Below are positions 21,241-45,375 of a DNA stretch of 64,000 nt, piece after piece. Both the position numbers and the translations under genes were made by a program. The DNA comes from Alphaproteobacteria bacterium. GTDB taxonomy: Bacteria; Pseudomonadota; Alphaproteobacteria; MPNO01; UBA830. The notes beneath the pieces were generated by a model that saw nothing but the letters and a program-made list of their open reading frames with translations, was not told the DNA's origin and did no database searches. Numbering within the stretch: the first letter of the stretch is position 1; every line of letters begins with the position of its first letter. Where the stretch lies: positions 128,001 through 192,000 of the forward strand of contig OZ219791.1 in assembly GCA_964291215.2 (NCBI GenBank), in the 5' to 3' direction.

Positions 21241-23439
21241 CCCCACTTCCAGTCTGAAGTGCAACACCCGGCCCTCATCGCAGTGAGGGCGTAGCCCGAA
21301 CGGAGATGAGGGCCGGGTGTTGCGCAAATCTTTCCCCTCTGCCCCTCTCGATTCCGCCTGGAAACAGCTTCAGTTCCTTCAACATCGAGCTTATGCAACG
21401 CCTTTGTCGGCTTCAAGCCACTATTCCGCCGTCGCGCGGCATGGACCCTGCTGCACGTTGCGGCTACGGAACGCAGATGGTCAGGGCGGTTTCACTTCAA
21501 GATTACCTCCGTCGGCGATCCCGGGACTTTCCGAGTGTTGAGCCGCACCTTCTGAACATCTTCGTTGCATGTCGCGCGAAAGTCCGTGCCCTTCGGGAAG
21601 TACTCCCGCACCAGGCCGTTGGTGTGCTCATTCAAGCCGCGCTCCCAGGAATGGAAAGGCGAAGAAGAAATCTGCGTCAAGTGCGACACGCCTGTGGTCT
21701 GCGAACTCCTTGCCGTTGTGATTGTGTGGACCAATAGCGCACCAGAGCCGAGCAGGCGGATCATACCAACCGTGTCTTTCTGTCCACCCAGCAAGGTGTA
21801 TTTCGTGGCACGAGCGACACGACAGCTCCACTGTGAGCTTTGCCGATGATGGCTCCCAGTCGCCGATCCGTTCCTTTGCCTCCGCAGGGCGCTCGGAAAT
21901 GTCCACCCGGCCGGAATGGCATTTGCCCTTCCAGTTCGGCTTCTTGCCGCGCCGCCGAAGCTTCTTCCACAAGGCGCCCCCAGCTCTCCGATCTTCATGA
22001 ATGCGATCATGGATCCGTTGCCGACCCACGGCCCTCCAGTCGAAAACGGCCGCTGCTCGGGGCCCTCCCGCAGCTTTTTCTGAGCTTCAGCCCGAGGCGT
22101 CAACCGCCAGGGTAACTGCTCACCCCCTGGTTCCGGCTTGATGTCGGGGTAGAGTAACGAACGGGTTTTCATGGAGATTTGACACTGCAGGCCGATTCGT
22201 TTAGTGGTGGTCATCGAGAACGATGGGGACCGCCAGTGGGCTACTTTGGATCGAAGGCGACGAGCGGACTGTGCCAGCTGCTTCCGGGGCTCCAGCCCCC
22301 GCATGATCTGTATGTGGAAATGCATCCGGGAGGCGGCGCGCTGATGAAGCGCAAGGCCGGGCGGGGGAGTACCGGAAGATGCCGCCGGGCGAGCGCCAGG
22401 CGATGCTCGCGGCGAGGCCGGGTGATGGCGACGGGCGGCGCGCGAGAAGTTCGAAGCGACCAAGGCGCTGCCGGCAAGGTGTCGGAAGAGGCCGTCATCC
22501 GCGTCCTCGTCATCCTGCTCGACATCCTCATCGTCGTCCTTCTGGAGAAGACCACGCACGAGCCGGAACTCCGGTCTGCCGCCGTCACAGACGGACAAGA
22601 GCGTGCCGGGAGCAAGGGCCCGAAGCCGAACCGGCAGATGGGCGACAACCTGCCATCGTCGAGGAGACGGTCGCGGCCTGCGACGCCTGCGGCGCCGACG
22701 GCCCCGTCGAGCGCCGCACGACATCGTGTTCGAGGTCGCGCCGCGTCGATGCCGAGGAATGCCCGAAGTGCAAGGCCCGGTTCCCCGACAACATCCCGTG
22801 CAGTACGGCATCCAGGCCCTCGTCCCTGCTGGTCGCCCGGATGCTGTCCCTGCGCCGTCGCGCTCGTGCAGGCGATATCAAGCTCTCCGAGGCCTCGGCC
22901 ATGCTTTCACGATGCGTCATGGGAGGAGGCCGCCGTGGCGCACCTCCTGCAACGCCCGATGTCGACGATTTCGGATCAACGGCAAGTGGCTCCATGTCGT
23001 CGGGACGTGCAAGTTCCCGCACCGCAAGCAAGAGATCGGCCCGTGCTACAAGGGCGTCCTGGGCCTCGTACATGGCAGTGTAGCCACCAGCGGCAGCGAC
23101 CTGCTGCGCGAACTGACCTTTGTCGTCGAGGCTGCCGCGCGACTGATGAAGAGCCTGCTCCCTGCCACAAGGTCAACAAGAGCGCATCCAGGACCCTGAA
23201 CGAGGCCGGGCGCTACCGCACCATCAGGGCGCCAGGGAACTGCCCGACATCCCGCCAAAAGGAAAACGCATCGCAAACGCGCACAACCTGCACGAACGTC
23301 TCGTGAAACACGAAAACCTGCGCTTCACAGACGACCATCGCGGTAGGGAACCGGGTTACCCCCCGCACAGAACCAGACGTGCGCTGTTCGCATCCGGCTC
23401 CTCCCCTGACGACAAGGCGCTGGTTTGGCCACGGATGCT

Positions 23440-24520
23440 GGCTCAGTGGGCAGCGGCGAGGGTGTCTATGTCCCCGGTGAAGTCCTTTTGGGAGCGTCGC
23501 CGAAGGGCACGCAGCTGTTTGCATTGGTGTATGAACTTCTGCAGGCTGCTTCCCGGAACGGCGTAGTAGCAGCCGTTGATAACTCACCACTTGGCCGTTT
23601 CGTGCCGGTTATCGTGCCACCGCCTGCGCAAGGCCTCCTTGATCCGCCGCAGGGTGCCCGTTTGCGAGATGGACCGACCCTGAACCTGCCTTTCCTCGTC
23701 TGTTCGCAGAAGTGCGTCATGCCGAGGAAGTCGAACGTCTTGCCCTGCCTACGCTTCCGGCGGTTCGCTCTGGCAAACCGACCGAACTCGATGATTTTCC
23801 GGGTGCAGTTCAAGTGGGCCAGTCTCTCCCCAAGGTCTCAGCGCCGCGCGTCGCTCAGATGCTGAAAGCCGCACACGAAGTCGTCCGCATAATGATCGTG
23901 TCGCCTCCAGCCATCCGCTTGCGCCAATGGTTCTGGAACCAGTCGTACGTAGTGCAGGTAGACGTTCGCAAGGCATGGCGCCGCCCCTTGCGGTGTTCCC
24001 TTGCCAGTCGGTCCCTTCCATGACGCCGGCGTCACTTGATGATCAGACCCCCCGATCCGTTTCCCGAGCATCGCGACCAGATGGTCGCGGTCGAGATTGT
24101 CGAAGAACCCACGGGCGTCAACGATCCAGTTGACCTTCCGCCGTTCCACCGTGACGGCGCATGATGCGCCCCGGCCGGAAGCCGTAACTAAACCCGAGGA
24201 ACTCCGTCTCGCGGCACCAGAATCACACCGCCCGCTGAAGAATCTTGTCCGAGGCAAGCGGTCGTTGCCCTCCATCCTCCTTGGGTATGTAAACCCCGGA
24301 GGCGCCCGGTACGCACCCCTGTGCACACGGGCGTGCAGGCAGTTCCACACCCTCCGCGTACGCTTGCCACACAACGCCCCGCCGCCGCGTCCTTCCTCAA
24401 GGAATGGAACGCATCGTGCAGAACGTCGACCGTCACGTGGTGGAGTAAAGACGCTCTTCCGGGTTCCTCTTCGCTACCTGCGTTCAGCCGCCTGTGACCC
24501 CCGCTTCTGCGCGCGGCGCG
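23440..24520 (-). pseudogene. ltrA: Group II intron reverse transcriptase/maturase, frameshifted (approximate bounds)
   Basis: LLHHVT, GTPQG..PCLANVYLHYV, YADDFV and TFDFLGMTH motifs spread across frames. Confidence 0.8.
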
Positions 24521-24826
24521 GGCTTTGGCCAACCGCATTGCCCTTCCCTCCAACAACTCCGCAGGCTCCGAAGAACCCTTGTTCGCCGCCTTCAGCGGTA
24601 CTATGGCCGAATCTGACTTCTCGTTCATCATCGGTTTACGGATTAGTTCCTTTCCTCTGCGGCCCCTCCACGACAGAGGGGCAAGACCTCCCAGGTCCCT
24701 GCTTCGGCCATGGTTCTCGGACCCCGCGGAGCCCCCGTTCGCCTCACCAACGCGGCTCGTGGGGTGTTGCCCACTCGGACGACCTCGGCACTCCGGTTTC
24801 AAAGCATCTCGTGGCTCAATAGCCTG

Positions 24827-25677
24827 GTCGGGTAGGCCACTGGCGCGCGCATCCTTAGGCGAAGGCTTTATCCGTCACCGCTCTTTCGATTGCGGGCGGG
24901 TTCGCAGAATCGCCATAGACCACGTTTCCAGCAGCCCCCCTAAAATTCCGTACGTCCGGTTTTCCCGGTTCAAGCATCAGGCACCCACTTGGAGTTCGGT
25001 GCGAAGCCTTCCCACGCCATAGTCAAGGCTGACCCAACCATACCCACGGCATCTCCGAGCGTTTGCTCCGTCCTTCGGCCTTGCAGTCTGTCGGTCGGTG
25101 CCGGTCTCTGCGTACCGGCTTGACCTGCCGCATAGGCTACCTGAGCCCTGAGGTCCTCGCTCGGGACGGGTTGTGTTGTCCCGCCCCTTAGGCGACCTCA
25201 TCCGCCAGTCAGGAGGACTCCGCGTCCTTTCCCGTCTCCCGGTTATAGACGCGGTCCTTGACGGGTCTCTTCATCCTGTCTGTCCTCCTCACCTTCCGGT
25301 CTTTCACTGCTGATCTGTCCCGAATTGCCGCCGTCTGTACCCCGGGGAACCCGATGCGTGTTCCTCAGTTCTTCCGCATCGACACTGGCCATCGGGTAGC
25401 AAGCAGACCCTTGGCGTTCACCGTCTATCCCACAAATCAGCTTCGTGTGGGTGGGGAATTTCGGGGCTTCGTCCAATCGTTCGCTTTCGCTACGGCCCTC
25501 CGGTTTGCTCGCCGCCCTGGCTGACCGGACCGGCTGGACACTGCGTTCCAGCCAGCCCACGACGGCTTTCTACGTCCCAGCTCGCTGATCCAGGGTCGCC
25601 CCTGAACCAATGCTACGGCGCCAAACTGAGAATTGCGGGACTTTCACCCGCAAGATCAGCAGCTAGACTCGCTGCAC
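24827..25677 (-). mobile_element. ORF-less group II intron (about 851 nt) nested in domain I of the RT intron
   Basis: 5' GTGCAG; domain V-like CCGGGAAAACCGGACGTACGGAATTTTAGGGGGG; long domain VI ending CCTACCCGAC; absent from the other RT intron copies. Confidence 0.8.
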
Positions 25678-25802
25678 GCCTGCCGCTCCCCAACGCTTCG
25701 CCTGGCGCCTCACGACGCATGGTTCACGGAGAAAGTGGTGGTTAGCCTCTCTTCCTACCGGGACTTGCACCCGGCCACATTCCACCAGTTTGCCTGGCGC
25801 AC

Positions 25803-27444
25803 ATCGCGGTAGGGAACCGGGTTACCCCGGTCCCCCCGCACAGAACCGGACGTGCGCTGTTCGCATCCGGCTCCTCCCCTGACGACAAGGCGCTGATTTG
25901 GCCACGGGTGGCGGATGCTGGCTCAGTGGGCAGCGGTGAGGGTGTCTACGTCCCCGGTGAAGTCCTTTTGGGAGCGTCGCCGAAGGGCACGCAGCTGTTT
26001 GCATTGGTGTATGAACTTCTGCAGGCTGCTTCCTGGAACGGCGTAGTAGCAGCCGTTGATAACTCACCACTTGGCCGTTTCGTGCCGGTTATCGTGCCAC
26101 CGCCTGCGCAAGGCCTCCTTGATCCGCCGCAGGGTGCCCGTTTGCGAGATGGACCGACCCTGAACCTGCCTTTCCTCGTCTGTTCGCAGAAGTGCGTCAT
26201 GCCGAGGAAGTCGAACGTCTTGCCCTGCTTCCGGCGGTTTGCTCTGGCAAACCGACCGAACTCGATGATTTTCCGGGTGCAGTTCAAGTGGGCCAGTCTC
26301 TCCCCAAGGTCTCGGAGAAAGCGCCGCGCGTCGCCCAGATGCTGAAAGCCGCACACGAAGTCATCCGCATAATGATCGTGTCGCCTCCAGCCATCCGCTT
26401 GCGCCAGTGGTTCTGGAACCAGTCGTACGTAGTGCAGGTAGACGTTCGCAAGGCATGGCGATACAATCGCCCCTTGCGGTGTTCCCTTGCCAGTCGGTCC
26501 CTTCCATGACGCCGGCGTTCAGCCACTTGATGATCAGACCCCCCGATCCGTTTCCCGAGCATCGCGACCAGGTGGTCGCGGTCGAGATTGTCGAAGAACC
26601 CACGGGCGTCAACGATCCAGTTGACCTTCCGCCGTTCCACCGTGACGGCATCGAGCGCATGATGCGCCCCGGCCGGAAGCCGTAACTAAACCCGAGGAAC
26701 TCCGTCTCGCGGCACCAGAATCACACCGCCCGCTGAAGAATCTTGTCCGAGGCAAGCGGTCGTTGCCCTCCATCCTCCTTGGGTATGTAAACCCCGGAGG
26801 CGCCCGGTACGCACCCCTGTGCACACGGGCGTGCAGGTCAACCAGTTCCACACCCTCCGCATACGCTTGCCACACAACGCCGTCCACGCCCGCCGCCGCG
26901 TCCTTCCTCAAGGAATGGAACGCATCGTGCAGAGCGTCGACCGTCACGTGGTGGAGTAAAGACGCTCTTCCGGGTTCCTCTTCGCTACCTGCGTTCAGCC
27001 ACCTGTGACCCCCGCTTCTGCGCGCGGCGCGGGCTTTGGCCAACCGCATTGCCCTTCCCTCCAGCAACTCCGCAGGCTCCGAAGAACCCTTGTTCGCCGC
27101 CTTCAACGGTACTATGGCCGAATCTGACTTCTCGTTCATCATCGGTTTACGGATTAGTTCCTTTCCTCTGCGGCCCCTCCACGACAGAGGGGCAAGACCT
27201 CCCAGGTCCCTGCTTCGGCCATGGTTCTCGGACCCCGCGGAGCCCCCGTTCGCCTCACCAACGCGGCTCGTTGCCTTCGGCCACGACCTCGGCACTCCGG
27301 TTTCAAAGCATCTCGTGGCTCAATAGCCTGCCGCTCCCCAACGCTTCGCCTGGCGCCTCACGACGCATGGTTCACGGAGAAAGTGGTGGTTAGCCTCTCT
27401 CGGGACTTGCACCCGGCAACATTCCACCAGTTTGCCTGGCGCAC
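25803..27444 (-). mobile_element. Group II intron (RT-encoding), copy 2
   Basis: Complete ends abutting copies 1 and 3; RT motifs. Confidence 0.9.
25925..27030 (-). pseudogene. ltrA: Group II intron RT/maturase, frameshifted (approximate bounds)
   Basis: KDAAAGVDGVVWQAY, KVNWIVDA-GFFD and IIEFGRFA motifs. Confidence 0.8.
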
Positions 27445-29105
27445 ATTGCGGTAGGGAACCGGGTTACCCCCCGCACAGAACCGGACGTGCGCTGTTCGCT
27501 CCTCCCCTGACGACAAGGCGCTGGTTTGGCCACGGGTGGCGGATGCTGGCTCAGTGGGCAGCGGCGAGGGTGTCTATGTCCCCGGTGAAGTCCTTTTGGG
27601 AGCGTCGCCGAAGGGCACGCAGCCGTTTGCATTGGTGTATGAACCCCTGCAGGGATTGACTGCTTCCCGGGACGGCGTAGTAGCAGCCGTTGATGACTCA
27701 CCACTTGGCCGTTTCGTGCCGGTTGTCGTGCCATCGCATGCGCAAGGCCCCCTTGATCCGCCGCAGGGTGCCCGTTTGCGAGACGGTTTGCGACCGACCC
27801 TGAACCTGCCTTTCCTCGTCTGTTCGCAGAAGTGCGTCATGCCGAGGAAGTCGAACGTCTTGCCCTGCTTCCGGCGGTTCGCTCTGGCAAACCGACCGAA
27901 CTCGATGATTGTCCGGGTGCAGTTCAAGTGGGCCAGCCTCTCCCCAAGGTCCCGGAGAAAGCGCTGCGCATCGCCCAGATGCTGAAAGCCGCACACGAAG
28001 TCGTCCGCATAATGATCGTGTCGCCTCCAGCCATCCGCTTGCGCCAGTGGTTCTGGAACCAGTCGCACGTAGTGCAGGTAAACGTTCGCGAGGCAGGGCG
28101 ATACAATCGCCCCCTGCGGTGTTCCCTTGCCCGTATCCGACCAGTCGGTCCCTTCCATGACGCCGGCGTTTAGCCACTTGATGATCAGACCCCCCGATCC
28201 GTTTCCCGAGCATCGCAATCAGGTGGTCGCGGTCGAGATTGTCGAAGAACCCGCGGGCGTCAACGATCCAGTTGACCTTCCGCCGTTCCACCGTGACGGC
28301 GTCGAGCGCGTGATGCGCCCCGGCCGGAAACCGTAACTAAACCCGAGGAACTCCGTTTCGTAGAGCGGCACCAGAATCACACTGCCCGCTGAAGAATTTT
28401 GTCCGAGGCAAGCGGTCGTTGCCCTCCATCCTCCTTGGGTATGTAAACCCTGGAGGCGCCCGGTACGCACCCCTGTGCACACGGGCGTGCAGGCAGTTCC
28501 ACACCCTCCGCATACGCTTGCCACACAACGCCCCGCCGCCGCGTCCTTCCTCAAGGAATGGAACGCGTCGTGCAGAGCGTCGACCGTCACGTGGTGGAGT
28601 AAAGACGCTCTTCCGGGTTCCTCTTCGCTACCTGCGTTCAGCCGCCTGTGACCCCCGCTTCTGCGCGCGGCGCGGGCCAACCGCATTGCCCTTGGCCTTC
28701 CCTCCAGCAACTCCGCAGGCTCCGAAGAACCCTTGTTCGCCGCCTTCAACGGTACTATGGCCGGATCTGACTTCTCGTTCATCATCGGTTTATGGAATAG
28801 TTCCTTTCCTCTGCGGCCCCTCCACGACAGAGGGGCGATTGAAAGACCTCCCAGGTCCCTGCTTCGGCCATGGTTCTCGGACCCCGCGGAGCCCCCCTCA
28901 CCAACGCGGCTCGCGGGGTGTTGCCCACTTGGACGACCTCGGCACTCCGGTTTCAAAGCATCTCGTGGCTCAATAGCCCGGCCTGCCGCTCCCCAACGCT
29001 TCGCCTGACGCCTCACGACGCATGGTTCACGGAGAAAGTGGTGGTTAGCCTCTCTTCCTGCCGGGACTTGCACCCGGCAACATTCCACCAGTTAGCCTGG
29101 CGCAC
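27445..29105 (-). mobile_element. Group II intron (RT-encoding), copy 3, adjacent to the 5' exon
   Basis: Complete ends; nearly identical to 43714-45375. Confidence 0.9.
27555..28670 (-). pseudogene. ltrA: Group II intron RT/maturase, frameshifted (approximate bounds)
   Basis: YETEFLGFSYGFRPGR, GTPQGAIVSPCLANVYLHYV and YADD motifs. Confidence 0.8.
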
Positions 29106-37616: not shown

Positions 37617-38537
37617 CTACTGCTGATCCTGTTCCGGCGGCACCGGCGGGACATGCTGTCCGGCATCGATGACGCCGCGCCTGATTTCGCGGGTGCGGCG
37701 GAAGAACGTCTCCAGAGTCTCCCCATCGCCGACCCGGATCGCCCGCTGCAATATCGCGAGATCTTCCCACAGCCGGCCGAGCATCTCGAGCACCGCTTCC
37801 CGGTTGGCAAGGAAGACATCTCGCCACATGATCGGATCCGACCCGGCTATCCGCGTAAAGTCACGGAAACCCGACGCCGAATACTTGATCACCTCGCTCT
37901 TGATGTGATCTTCGAGGTCGTTGGCTGTGCCGACGATCGTGTAGGCGATGAGGTGCGGCAGGTGGGACGTGATGGCCAACACCTGATCGTGGTGTTCCGG
38001 GTCGAGGACATCTATGTGGCTTCCGGCGCGGCGCCAGAATTCCGCCACCCGTTCGACGGCTGCCGGATCGCACCCGGGCTGCGGCGTGATCAGGAACCAG
38101 CGGTCCTCGAACAACGTCTCGAAGCCGGCTTCCGGTCCCGACATCTCGGTGCCCGCGATCGGGTGGCCCGGCACGAAATGCACGTCGGACGGCAGACGTG
38201 ACAGCACATCGTCCAGGATGGCCGCCTTCACCGAACCGACATCCGTGACGATGGCGCCCGACTTCAGCGCCGGCGCAATGCGGTCGGCGATCGCGGCATA
38301 GGTCGAGACCGGGGTGCAGATCATGACGAGATCGGCGTCCCGCGCAGCGGCTGCGGGATTCGCGGAGATCTCGTCGGCGAGCCCGAGCTCGCGGACGGTT
38401 TCGAGCGTCGCTTCGGTGCGGGCACAGGCGACGATTGTGCCGGCCAGCCCGTCGCGGCGCATGATCCGCGCCACCGACGAGCCGATCAGCCCGATTCCGA
38501 TCAGGGCCACCCGGTCGAACAGGGGGGCGCCGTTCAT
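37617..38537 (-). CDS. tyrA: Prephenate/arogenate (cyclohexadienyl) dehydrogenase
   Basis: GIGLIGSS, TDVGSVK, HPIAGTE.SGP, HDQVLAITSHLPH and GFRDFTRIA.SDP.MWRD motifs. Confidence 0.93.
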   Translation of the reverse strand: MNGAPLFDRVALIGIGLIGSSVARIMRRDGLAGTIVACARTEATLETVRELGLADEISANPAAAARDADLVMICTPVSTYAAIADRIAPALKSGAIVTDVGSVKAAILDDVLSRLPSDVHFVPGHPIAGTEMSGPEAGFETLFEDRWFLITPQPGCDPAAVERVAEFWRRAGSHIDVLDPEHHDQVLAITSHLPHLIAYTIVGTANDLEDHIKSEVIKYSASGFRDFTRIAGSDPIMWRDVFLANREAVLEMLGRLWEDLAILQRAIRVGDGETLETFFRRTREIRRGVIDAGQHVPPVPPEQDQQ

Positions 38538-39628
38538 GACGGCTCCATGAACTCGGCTATCGCTTCCGCCGTCATCCGCATCTCCTCCTCAAGGCCGATT
38601 GTAATGCGGACGCCGTCGGGGATGCCGGCGCCGGCCGCGCTGCGGGGAATGATGCCGCGGGTCTTGAGGAACGCGATCGCTTTGGCCGCCGTGCGCCCGC
38701 CGCCACGGGGGAAGCGTCCAAGCACGAAATTCCCCGTGCTCGGCACCACCAAGACTCCGGCTTCATCCAGCCGCTCCGAGAGCCACGGCAACCATGCGGT
38801 GTTGTGATCGCGCGATCTGGTGACGAACTCGACATCGTTGACTGCCGCGATGCCGGCCGCCTGGGCCGCCACGTTGATGTTGAACGGCGAGCGTACGCGG
38901 TTGAGGACATCGACGATCGAGGGCGGGCAGTAGGCCCAGCCCAGGCGCGCGCCGCCGAGGGCGTAAATCTTGGAAAACGTCCTGGTCATGACCACGTTGT
39001 CGCCGGCATCCACGAGGCCGGTTCCAGGCGAATAGTCGTTGCGCGTGACATATTCGGCGTAGGCCGCATCGATGACGAGAAGGATGTCCGCGCGCAGGCC
39101 GGCGCGCAGCCGGGCCACCTCGTCGGCTGAAATGCAGGTGCCGGTCGGATTGTTCGGGTTGGCGACATACACCATCCGGGTGCGTTCCGTCATCCTGTCG
39201 AGCAGCGCATCGACGTCGAGCGTGTAATCGGTCTCGGCCACCTTGACCGGCGTCGCGCCGGCGGACAGCGCGATCAGCGGATACATGACGAATGCATGTT
39301 CGCCGAACATGATCTCATCGCCGGGGCCGGCATAGGCGCGCGCCAGCAGCGTGAGCAGCTCGTCGGATCCGGCGCCGGCGACGATCCGGTCGACATCGAG
39401 ACCGTATCGCGCCGCGATCGCCTCGCGCAACGCCGTCGAATCGCCATCCGGATACCGGTGGGCCTCTGCGGCCGTCGATCGATAGGCTTCAACGGCAAGT
39501 GGACTCGGGCCGAGCGCGCCCTCGTTCGCGGACAGCTTGATCAGCCTCTCCTCGCCCGCGATCTCAGATTCGCCAGGCACGTACGGGCTGATTTCCATGA
39601 TTCCGGGACGCGGAACGGGAACGGACAT
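38534..39628 (-). CDS. hisC: Histidinol-phosphate aminotransferase
   Basis: IKLSANE, RYPD, ANPNNPTG, DAAYAEY and RTFSKIYALGGARLG motifs. Confidence 0.95.
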   Translation of the reverse strand: MSVPVPRPGIMEISPYVPGESEIAGEERLIKLSANEGALGPSPLAVEAYRSTAAEAHRYPDGDSTALREAIAARYGLDVDRIVAGAGSDELLTLLARAYAGPGDEIMFGEHAFVMYPLIALSAGATPVKVAETDYTLDVDALLDRMTERTRMVYVANPNNPTGTCISADEVARLRAGLRADILLVIDAAYAEYVTRNDYSPGTGLVDAGDNVVMTRTFSKIYALGGARLGWAYCPPSIVDVLNRVRSPFNINVAAQAAGIAAVNDVEFVTRSRDHNTAWLPWLSERLDEAGVLVVPSTGNFVLGRFPRGGGRTAAKAIAFLKTRGIIPRSAAGAGIPDGVRITIGLEEEMRMTAEAIAEFMEPS

Positions 39629-40491
39629 CACGCATTGCTCCTGTTTACCGGCGCCGGCAGCGCCAGCGGCGCGGGCCACACGCCAAGGTGATCGATGGCT
39701 TTCGCAGGCTCTCCGCCAGCGCGGACGAGGCTGCCAAGACGTTCATCGCCGGACGGAACAAAGCCCGCAAATTCAACGAAATACCGCCCGGGGCCGGATG
39801 TCGTGCCGGACTCCCGCACCTCCAGCAGAGTCAGCCCGGCCGAGGTTGTTGCCGCCTCGATCTCCCCGCGTCCGGTCCCCGGTCCGGTATGCAGCGCGAT
39901 CAAGCTACGATCATCACCGCTCTCCTCCGGGGCGATTGTTGCGACGCAAAAGATGCGGCCGCCCGCATGCGCCGTCCGCACGAACGGAAGCTCCGCGCAT
40001 ATAGCCACCCCCGGGTTCCCGCTATCAGCGAGCAGATCCCACCAGCCCGCGTCCCCGCCGGGCTCCGGTCCGGGGAGAACGCCGACCGCCGCCGACCCGT
40101 CCTCCACCGTATCGAGCACCGCCCGACTCGCGCCGAACTCCTCGACCGCTGCGTCGCAGCCGAAGTGGTTACGCGCGGCCTCGCGGCCCGTCCGGTCGCC
40201 CGCCGGCGCATAGACCGCGATGCTGAAATCACCCTGCAGCCGCGTCATTGCCGAGACTATTTCCCGCCATATCTGCGCCACGACTCGCGGCGGAAACACG
40301 CCCTGGTGACGTTCCAACAGGCGACGCAGCACCCGGGCCTCGCGCGCGGGCCGCCAAGCCAGGCCGCTCCCCTTGGCCTGCAGTACTTCGTCCGCGATCA
40401 CGGCGCGACGCATCAGCAGATCATGCATCGCAGCGTCTATATCGTCGATCTGCCGCCGCAGCACTCCGAGCGGCGTGTCAACTTCCATCAT
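39628..40491 (-). CDS. Chorismate mutase (PheA-like, alphaproteobacterial type)
   Basis: LRRQIDDIDAAMHDLLMRRA..RPAREARVLRRL..IWREIVS; translationally coupled to hisC. Confidence 0.88.
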   Translation of the reverse strand: MMEVDTPLGVLRRQIDDIDAAMHDLLMRRAVIADEVLQAKGSGLAWRPAREARVLRRLLERHQGVFPPRVVAQIWREIVSAMTRLQGDFSIAVYAPAGDRTGREAARNHFGCDAAVEEFGASRAVLDTVEDGSAAVGVLPGPEPGGDAGWWDLLADSGNPGVAICAELPFVRTAHAGGRIFCVATIAPEESGDDRSLIALHTGPGTGRGEIEAATTSAGLTLLEVRESGTTSGPGRYFVEFAGFVPSGDERLGSLVRAGGEPAKAIDHLGVWPAPLALPAPVNRSNA

Positions 40492-40608
40492 GACTGGATT
40501 TACTCTTGACAACCCGGCCGTTTTACGACGAAACTGGGGCCGTAACCAGCTTTCGCGGCCATATGTAGCCGCGCGAACTCGCAAACGCAAGGATTTCAGC
40601 GGCGAACG

Positions 40609-43713: not shown

Positions 43714-45375
43714 ATTGCGGTAGGGAACCGGGTTACCCCCCGCACAGAACCGGACGTGCGCTGTTCGCTCCTCCCCTGACGACAAGGCGCTGGTTTGGCC
43801 ACGGGTGGCGGATGCTGGCTCAGTGGGCAGCGGCGAGGGTGTCTATGTCCCCGGTGAAGTCCTTTTGGGAGCGTCGCCGAAGGGCACGCAGCCGTTTGCA
43901 TTGGTGTATGAACCCCTGCAGGGATTGACTGCTTCCCGGGACGGCGTAGTAGCAGCCGTTGATGACTCACCACTTGGCCGTTTCGTGCCGGTTGTCGTGC
44001 CATCGCATGCGCAAGGCCCCCTTGATCCGCCGCAGGGTGCCCGTTTGCGAGACGGTTTGCGACCGACCCTGAACCTGCCTTTCCTCGTCTGTTCGCAGAA
44101 GTGCGTCATGCCGAGGAAGTCGAACGTCTTGCCCTGCTTCCGGCGGTTCGCTCTGGCAAACCGACCGAACTCGATGATTGTCCGGGTGCAGTTCAAGTGG
44201 GCCAGCCTCTCCCCAAGGTCCCGGAGAAAGCGCTGCGCATCGCCCAGATGCTGAAAGCCGCACACGAAGTCGTCCGCATAATGATCGTGTCGCCTCCAGC
44301 CATCCGCTTGCGCCAGTGGTTCTGGAACCAGTCGCACGTAGTGCAGGTAAACGTTCGCGAGGCAGGGCGATACAATCGCCCCCTGCGGTGTTCCCTTGCC
44401 CGTATCCGACCAGTCGGTCCCTTCCATGACGCCGGCGTTTAGCCACTTGATGATCAGACCCCCCGATCCGTTTCCCGAGCATCGCAATCAGGTGGTCGCG
44501 GTCGAGATTGTCGAAGAACCCGCGGGCGTCAACGATCCAGTTGACCTTCCGCCGTTCCACCGTGACGGCGTCGAGCGCGTGATGCGCCCCGGCCGGAAAC
44601 CGTAACTAAACCCGAGGAACTCCGTTTCGTAGAGCGGCACCAGAATCACACTGCCCGCTGAAGAATCTTGTCCGAGGCAAGCGGTCGTTGCCCTCCATCC
44701 TCCTTGGGTATGTAAACCCTGGAGGCGCCCGGTACGCACCCCTGTGCACACGGGCGTGCAGGTCAACCAGTTCCACACCCTCCGCATACGCTTGCCACAC
44801 AACGCCGTCCACGCCCGCCGCCGCGTCCTTCCTCAAGGAATGGAACGCATCGTGCAGAGCGTCGACCGTCACGTGGTGGAGTAAAGACGCTCTTCCGGGT
44901 TCCTCTTCGCTACCTGCGTTCAGCCGCCTGTGACCCCCGCTTCTGCGCGCGGCGCGGGCCAACCGCATTGCCCTTCCCTCCAGCAACTCCGCAGGCTCCG
45001 AAGAACCCTTGTTCGCCGCCTTCAACGGTACTATGGCCGGATCTGACTTCTCGTTCATCATCGGTTTATGGAATAGTTCCTTTCCTCTGCGGCCCCTCCA
45101 CGACAGAGGGGCAAGACCTCCCAGGTCCCTGCTTCGGCCATGGTTCTCGGACCCCGCGGAGCCCCCCTCACCAACGCGGCTCGCGGGGTGTTGCCCACTT
45201 GGACGACCTCGGCACTCCGGTTTCAAAGCATCTCGTGGCTCAATAGCCCGGCCTGCCGCTCCCCAACGCTTCGCCTGACGCCTCACGACGCATGGTTCAC
45301 GGAGAAAGTGGTGGTTAGCCTCTCTTCCTGCCGGGACTTGCACCCGGCAACATTCCACCAGTTAGCCTGGCGCAC
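43714..45375 (-). mobile_element. Group II intron (RT-encoding), single copy
   Basis: GTGCG..AAT ends at the same tnpC site gacgacc|ccaacg. Confidence 0.9.
43825..44955 (-). pseudogene. ltrA: Group II intron RT/maturase, frameshifted (approximate bounds)
   Basis: AAGVDG, FLGFSYGFRPGR, GTPQG and YADD motifs. Confidence 0.8.

Follow-up and report, generated by a model that had tools for sequence, protein, structure and literature searches.

What is an 851-nt insert that carries no reverse transcriptase (RT) gene and lies inside domain I of an RT group II intron, how did it get there, and can such a pair still splice? These questions are raised by a locus in a 64,000-nt stretch of DNA (G000:C2:128001-192000; hereafter the window, to which all bare coordinates refer) from the alphaproteobacterial genome G000, which comprises 6.15 Mb and was scored 99% complete. 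A sequence-only reading had proposed a non-autonomous, class F-like intron that parasitises the RT intron, the latter being able to fold only after removal of the inner one. We consider it probable, with some room for doubt, that the insert belongs to a widespread family of ORF-less group IIB introns, that it likely entered its host by reverse splicing, probably with an RT acting in trans, and that it has since likely become inactive.

The insert and its site in the host intron

The insert runs from 25677 to 24827 on the minus strand, as do all intron parts given below, with exact coordinates; it starts with GTGCAG and ends with CCTACCCGAC. Its longest stop-free frame is 121 aa and it contains no RT. 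It interrupts the RT intron 25802→23337 after its first 125 nt, leaving a 5' part (25678..25802) and a 3' part (23337..24826) in which the RT ORF is broken and the domain V arm intact. Over the whole host we counted 36 gaps, no intact ORF and a longest stop-free frame of 253 aa. Insert and host are precisely nested in the same orientation, as in a twintron.

Upstream of this host stand two more tandem RT intron copies (25803..29105, that is, 25803-27444 and 27445-29105), so that 23337-29105 holds three copies head to tail; both have an empty site, as does a further copy at 43714..45375. The site is occupied again in the 5' part of an RT intron copy at 655..779, confirming the pattern first described for these copies. 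There, a second inner intron of the same subfamily (A) is represented by its positions 1-650 (16..654), with a 6-nt deletion in its EBS1 hairpin. It is interrupted at its position 650 by a member of subfamily B (EBS1 GCUGAC), which starts at window position 15 (1..15) and leaves the window (C2:128015-127134). The locus at the window start is thus a triple nest, with B inside A inside the RT intron. Genome-wide, one 5' flank is common to about 38 of the 49 RT intron copies, and six copies follow another copy. The shared flank is presumably IS-like.

Compared with the copy at 27330, the insert junction mimics a 5-nt duplication. That copy has an 11-nt deletion, and the undeleted target allele (3' flank of C2:1641435; union of 49 copies) reads GTGGGC beyond the site, so there is no target duplication, as had been proposed; the apparent one was rejected as an effect of deletions in neighbouring copies.

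Elsewhere, at 9242-14554 and 37617-40590, the window contains an rRNA operon and three ORFs amid repeat DNA. The operon gives full-length Rfam matches and no second copy of it was found; the ORFs give near-full Pfam matches to chorismate mutase, aminotransferase and prephenate dehydrogenase. Among sampled 20-mers of G000, 27% were repeated.

Fold and classification

The insert is an ORF-less group IIB intron. An RNAalifold consensus of 24 chosen homologs, 22 of them from outside G000, forms a six-domain wheel with compensatory change in 93 of 207 predicted pairs. A 219-pair structure, extended by gamma-gamma', by the base of domain V and by two long-range pairings (alpha and beta positions), has 98% of its cells paired and 97 pairs changed on both sides. 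Shuffled controls gave 52 ± 3.5 such pairs, with 0/500 reaching the real value, and slid partners gave 15-30; the fold was derived from the same alignment, and the test thereby favours it.

The window copy (24827..25677) belongs to subfamily A and differs from an intact 888-nt relative by six deletions of 6-7 nt. Its 5' end (25672..25677) is GUGCAG, with G1, G3, C4, A5 and G6 invariant in 24/24 homologs. The family consensus GYGCAG thus departs from group IIB GUGYG, position 5 being A throughout, and the suggestion of a non-canonical terminus holds. Domain I (25297..25671) has covarying long-range pairings at the positions where alpha and beta are expected in IIB introns. Domain II (25204..25296) is followed by the J2/3 linker GGAU (25200..25203), whose initial G could pair with the C that ends the intron; this gamma-gamma' pair is G-C in 24/24 homologs and, being invariant, gives no covariation. 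Domain III occupies 25150..25199 and domain IV 24972..25148; the latter is structured, about 180 nt long and without an ORF. Domain VI (24827..24940) is long, as had been noted; its bulged A lies at 24833 (7 nt before the 3' end), and it terminates in AC. The unpaired A at -7, the 3' AC and the gamma-gamma' pair, together with the six domains, are those of group IIB.

Domain V is the exception. The hairpin that had been called domain V-like is there as a remnant (24942..24971) but is incomplete, 7 nt being missing between 24969 and 24968. In the family as such, domain V has the AGC triad in the 22 non-G000 rows and an atypical extra AA on the 3' strand.

Covariance models gave a corresponding picture. 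RF02003, a domain I-IV model with a gathering score of 49, matched intact copies mostly at 50-69 bits (one at 46.6), with 61-68 bits for the intact relatives of the insert. On the insert itself it was the sole Rfam model to match and scored 28.7 bits (E 2.4e-4), in domain I and below gathering. The domain V-VI model RF00029 matched neither the window copy, nor an intact copy even at E ≤ 10, nor the other family copies scanned. In the Rfam check put forward with the sequence-only reading, the support for a group II intron comes from the intact relatives.

EBS-IBS pairing and target choice

The loop GCUUGC (25399..25404, in hairpin 25388-25415) had been put forward as EBS1 on the basis of a stem-loop at 25394-25410, and an unbiased column scan of 52 copies bears this out. 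This loop was the best complement of exon positions -1 to -5 (Watson-Crick in 39-47 of 48-52 copies), and a second loop, EBS2, was matched to -9 to -15. In the window, EBS1 faces IBS1 (GCAGGC, 25678..25683) and EBS2 (UUCCCCA, 25452..25458) faces IBS2 (UGGGGAG, 25686..25692), both in domain I of the host. A second column complementing exon -1 was set aside as a likely clade coincidence. For EBS3 a candidate C (25337) was picked by inspection; by inspection, too, it complements the first 3' exon base in six subfamilies from two genomes, and the 52-copy scan gave no clear column.

The subfamilies differ in the two loops, and each loop pair fits its own 5' exon. For seven EBS1/EBS2 variants and 15 distinct sites in G000 and the genome G041, the targeting score was 147.5, against 105.8 ± 8.0 when variant labels were permuted, and 0/100,000 permutations did as well; the copies counted are related rather than independent, which somewhat overstates the significance. 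The own subfamily was the best fit at 11/15 sites, another subfamily being equal or better at the remaining 4, one of which is the displaced copy of a tandem. The EBS1-IBS1 and EBS2-IBS2 pairings of a group IIB intron are thus present, and the family changes its target by altering its EBS loops.

These observations also decide whether the insert might be an IS or MITE that resembles an intron. The element is multicopy and non-coding, sits in an IS-rich genome and escapes RF00029, all of which such a reading could use. The ends and flanks of 20 insertions show neither terminal inverted repeats nor target duplication, and the element has a covarying six-domain fold with a bulged A and RF02003 scores above gathering. 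The EBS-IBS covariation refutes this identity, which we regard as wrong to near certainty.

Distribution and nesting

The family, about 880 nt long, was found in four Alphaproteobacteria genomes (G000, G041, G196 and G315) and 60 metagenome loci. By BLAST, G000 has 20 5' ends and 13 3' ends. In one G000 copy (C2:94960-97377; L007, L186), domain V contains an IS-like insertion of about 1.6 kb with an 8-nt duplication. G315 and G196 have full-length ORF-less copies at 80% and 76% identity, the sole full-length matches among 400 other genomes of the class, which gave 3 additional short matches. A first metagenome pattern had no matches; a 36-nt pattern gave 62 matches in the 60 loci, 8 with too little upstream DNA. 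Of the other 54, 52 were co-linear with the ~880-nt element, four of these with a 150-nt insertion; one was interrupted in domain V and one partly similar. At L133, L161, L169 and L172 the EBS1 loop of the family copy holds a 150-nt insertion. Across 31 distinct full-length sequences identity is 71-100% (median 78%), and the ORF-less form is conserved.

G041, the one genome matched in a pattern scan, carries intact copies of 888 nt. Six of these are identical and are nested in sibling copies immediately past domain V (L014:721-2495 and sister loci, at the domain V/VI junction). The nested copies' own version of that target differs by one base. Self-avoidance, by which G041 subfamily E would carry a changed copy of its own target, was considered weak, the variant occurring in other copies as well. 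A second, conventional ORF-less family in G041 (L189, G041:C2:4103400-4104700, and about 13 similar places) is an internal-deletion derivative of a resident G041 RT intron.

Nesting is a frequent habit of the family and not an obligate one. In G000, 12/20 5' ends lie inside group II introns: seven at the RT intron's domain I site that is also occupied in the window, three at a second RT intron site and two in another family copy, with eight elsewhere. The second site we take, by its motif, to be the start of domain III. Parasitism of the RT intron, as had been suggested, is accordingly common (10/20 G000 sites) but not a rule, and most G196 sites are not in introns. In the metagenomes, 33 full-length copies have 26 distinct 5' flanks, of which nine (L134, L141, L142, L149, L158, L168, L173, L183 and L185) show host-intron evidence, defined as an Rfam domain I-IV hit or an in-sense RT; five further flanks, short or unscanned, have a domain III-type motif on both sides, and the rest have none. 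At L149 the copy lies about 128 nt into a host-type domain I, near the site seen in the window, with a different EBS1.

L149 is also a chimera: at L149:2121-3280 the 5' part of a host-type intron is followed by the ORF-less intron and then by the terminal domains V-VI of an RT intron from another class; the two hosts look fused, as though two nested copies had recombined. Reciprocal nesting occurs as well, G000 having the RT intron inserted into ORF-less copies at four positions (C2:1604293-1610785, C1:2335067, C1:1752440).

Lineage and search for a cognate RT

Insert and host are of different lineages, as had been proposed. In Rfam the host matches RF02005 and RF00029, and the insert family RF02003; a family model of domains V-VI gave RF02003-type RT introns 33-62 bits, with host-type introns reaching 21-22 bits or being missed. 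The nearest RF02003-type RT introns are presumed to be of class F (g2-g4). The ranking leans towards another lineage nearer to class F, but the term class F-like would denote no more than an RNA resemblance (RF02003 and the 33-62 bits of the domain V-VI model), the class proper being defined by RT phylogeny, as set out in PMC3552965, and no RT-bearing member was found.

The RT-bearing relative that had been anticipated was sought in genomes, metagenomes, viral contigs, plasmids and phages, and none was found. Full-length family copies of G000, G041, G196 and G315 contain no RT, and none lay between the 5' end and domain V in any of the 54 metagenome matches with enough upstream DNA, a search whose pattern was built from ORF-less copies and would miss RT-bearing kin with another domain V/VI junction. 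No such form occurred in any of 40 relatives, among the 400 other genomes of the class (the two full-length matches being ORF-less) or, by pattern, in any of 400 other genomes of the phylum; plasmids, phages and viral contigs were blank or at chance level. The domain V-VI model found only the 13 family copies in G000 and only family copies in G041, with weak hits in 2 of 150 class genomes.

Resident RTs were of the host type. In G000, all 89 RT clusters were the host intron or had its G041 relative as best match, save three short fragments, whose best match was a query carrying a read-through tail. In G041 the 16 full-length RT loci were all host-type (TIGR04416 positive), and one truncated RT belonged to another family. 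Every full-length RT locus of G000 and G041 is thus host-type, yet G041 holds six identical nested copies. Identical, recent copies in company with no cognate RT point to mobilisation by a non-cognate RT. A cognate helper that was lost or left unassembled is possible, since G196 holds RT introns of the nearer RF02003 type and G041 the truncated RT.

Alternatively, the family might simply have arisen by ORF deletion from a class F/g-type RT intron and be mobilised by its own cognate RT, one that was lost, unassembled or unsampled. RF02003 and the long domain VI are common to such introns, which the family model scores at up to 62 bits, and the route has been described for Thermosynechococcus elongatus in PMC2882425. 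Set against this, no intron with a cognate RT from which the family could derive by ORF deletion was found in G000 or G041, BLAST similarity to the compared RT loci outside family copies extended over only 69 nt at 74%, the ORF-less form has been kept over the 31 diverged sequences, and no search returned an RT-bearing form. We judge such an origin unlikely.

Deletions and decay

The window copy has lost the 7 nt of domain V and five other segments of 6-7 nt. The domain V gap removes the G and C of the AGC triad, which the family has and this copy lacks, together with the lower helix's 5' strand. What is left of the domain does not fold (z +0.4, against -2.0 for an intact copy). The same gap is present in all 12 uninterrupted G000 copies, the window copy included, and in a 13th that also has the IS-like insertion. 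The host family is no better preserved: among 49 full-length RT intron copies none has a complete ORF (longest frame 386 aa), and 30/49 share a 7-nt domain V deletion.

Such losses are general in G000. Every repeat family tested has recurrent deletions of 5-7 nt (mode 6) at the same sites in many copies, with roughly one site in every 28 nt of the RT intron and 263 sites recurring at least 3 times. In the window they are also seen at 1021-2160, 2290-3540 and 22600-23330, and the G041 copies are clean. Deletions form mosaic combinations across the substitution tree, 3/48 being explained by a single step compared with 69/107 substitutions, from which the tree itself was built. Deletion sites show no clear motif, only a mild microhomology excess. 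CRISPR self-targeting was rejected as the cause, 0/111 spacers matching intron sequences beyond chance; the CRISPR-like arrays of G000 lie at C1:574322-581180 and C2:2068553-2069543 (96 and 17 repeats of 36 nt). The recurrent deletions could reflect a repeat-inactivating process.

These data bear on whether the twintron may be active, the inner intron splicing first and restoring the host, with the domain V gap of the inner intron arising from errors of assembly or polishing in repeats. That gap is seen solely in the G000 assembly. In two related public runs, X1 and X2, the missing 7 nt are covered to full depth, X3 has them at 8,767 of 20,416, and no such deletion appears among the public-run indels listed. 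An identical deletion in all uninterrupted copies of three subfamilies is odd, and in the DNA tested the deletions occur in repeats only, in a genome scored as nearly complete. What speaks against an artefact is that several of the same junctions are found in independent public contigs of related strains, both in the host intron (24521, 25863 and 27247; X1-X3) and in inner introns (the first two deletions and an 18-nt set; X1), so the deletion process is real in this lineage; in addition, substitutions follow the tree and deletions recur across it. An empty-site joint in run X2 was rejected as a splicing product and is a DNA allele. We therefore give an active twintron a small probability. The idea that the inner intron splices out and lets the host fold is not expected to hold for this copy, with the triad missing, five more deletions and the host ORF broken. 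The window inner intron is likely inactive and, given its domain V deletion and the shredded RT gene of its host, the twintron is probably a fossil.

EBS1 suggests an order of events. Subfamily A targets fit the intact EBS1, which only 1/10 subfamily-A copies of G000, the window copy, retains, the other 9/10 lacking it today; insertion therefore most likely preceded decay.

Discussion

We favour a history in which the inner intron would have entered domain I of the RT intron by reverse splicing guided by EBS-IBS pairing, a form of retrohoming, with the RT probably supplied in trans by an unrelated resident intron. Afterwards 7 nt of domain V would have been lost and, with them, probably its activity. 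Several subfamilies recognise conserved stretches in other group II ribozymes or in sibling copies, and such targets would be a renewable landing site that is co-transcribed with an RT gene.

A bolder version can be entertained, to which we give slightly less than even weight: the family may be a stand-alone lineage without any RT-bearing member, a satellite of unrelated RT introns that has reprogrammed its EBS loops to conserved cores (domains I, III and V) and siblings and borrows non-cognate RTs, ORF-less introns then being far commoner than thought. If this is true, surveys based on RF00029 would miss the lineage. One published pipeline demands RF00029 above 24 bits (PMC8919778, as the filter is given there) and probably misses the family copies; filters differ. 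If a non-cognate RT does mobilise the family, it would offer a natural model for a shared splicing and mobility protein serving many protein-less introns, and the intact G041 copies make this directly testable. The window copy, as a probable fossil, is of interest chiefly for having led to the family.

Twintrons, nesting in domain I and ORF-less introns mobilised in trans have been published before. A parent-less, multicopy ORF-less lineage with such ends was not found in the literature searched; Simon et al. 2008, Dai & Zimmerly 2003 or the Zimmerly database might list a member. ORF-free circularly permuted introns are also known (PMC8637638, in the part consulted). According to the account in PMC4424553, ORF-less bacterial introns are rare, and nearly all have a close RT-bearing relative next to them, the exception being those whose domain V differs from known ones. 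Our family fits this exception, with an atypical domain V, no RF00029 match and no cognate RT found, yet recent spread.

Four known systems come closest. In Methanosarcina acetivorans, repeated site-specific homing has stacked as many as five introns, and the M.a.I5 / UA.I3 / P.l.I2 / B.th.I3 lineage is specialised on a conserved intron motif (PMC4424553, PMC2504315). As described there, that lineage has its own RT and targets the RT catalytic motif, whereas the present family is without RT and targets RNA-structure motifs. The Tery_4732 twintron of Trichodesmium erythraeum (PMC4649490) likewise has a IIB intron inside domain I of a host from a different subgroup; its inner domain V is called atypical, and sequential splicing was shown. 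According to that report, both of its introns carry ORFs and interrupt a gene; our inner intron is ORF-less, the usual 5' flank of its host is one shared repeated site, and both introns are damaged. C.te.I1 of Clostridium tetani, as treated in PMC4424553, resembles the family as an ORF-less bacterial group II intron with no related RT in its genome; that account calls it the only exception known and a splicing element within a gene, whereas the present family is multicopy and retargeted. TeI3/TeI4 of Thermosynechococcus elongatus, as presented in PMC2882425, share with our family multicopy ORF-less introns, diverged EBS families, the homing of one of these into RT introns and mobilisation, probable in our case, by an RT in trans. 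TeI3 is an ORF deletion of the resident TeI4 and inserts in domain IV. The present inner intron is of a different RNA lineage from its host and belongs to a family in which no RT-bearing form was found, and the insertions of that family, spread over several genomes and metagenomes, fall in ribozyme domains I and III and in siblings.
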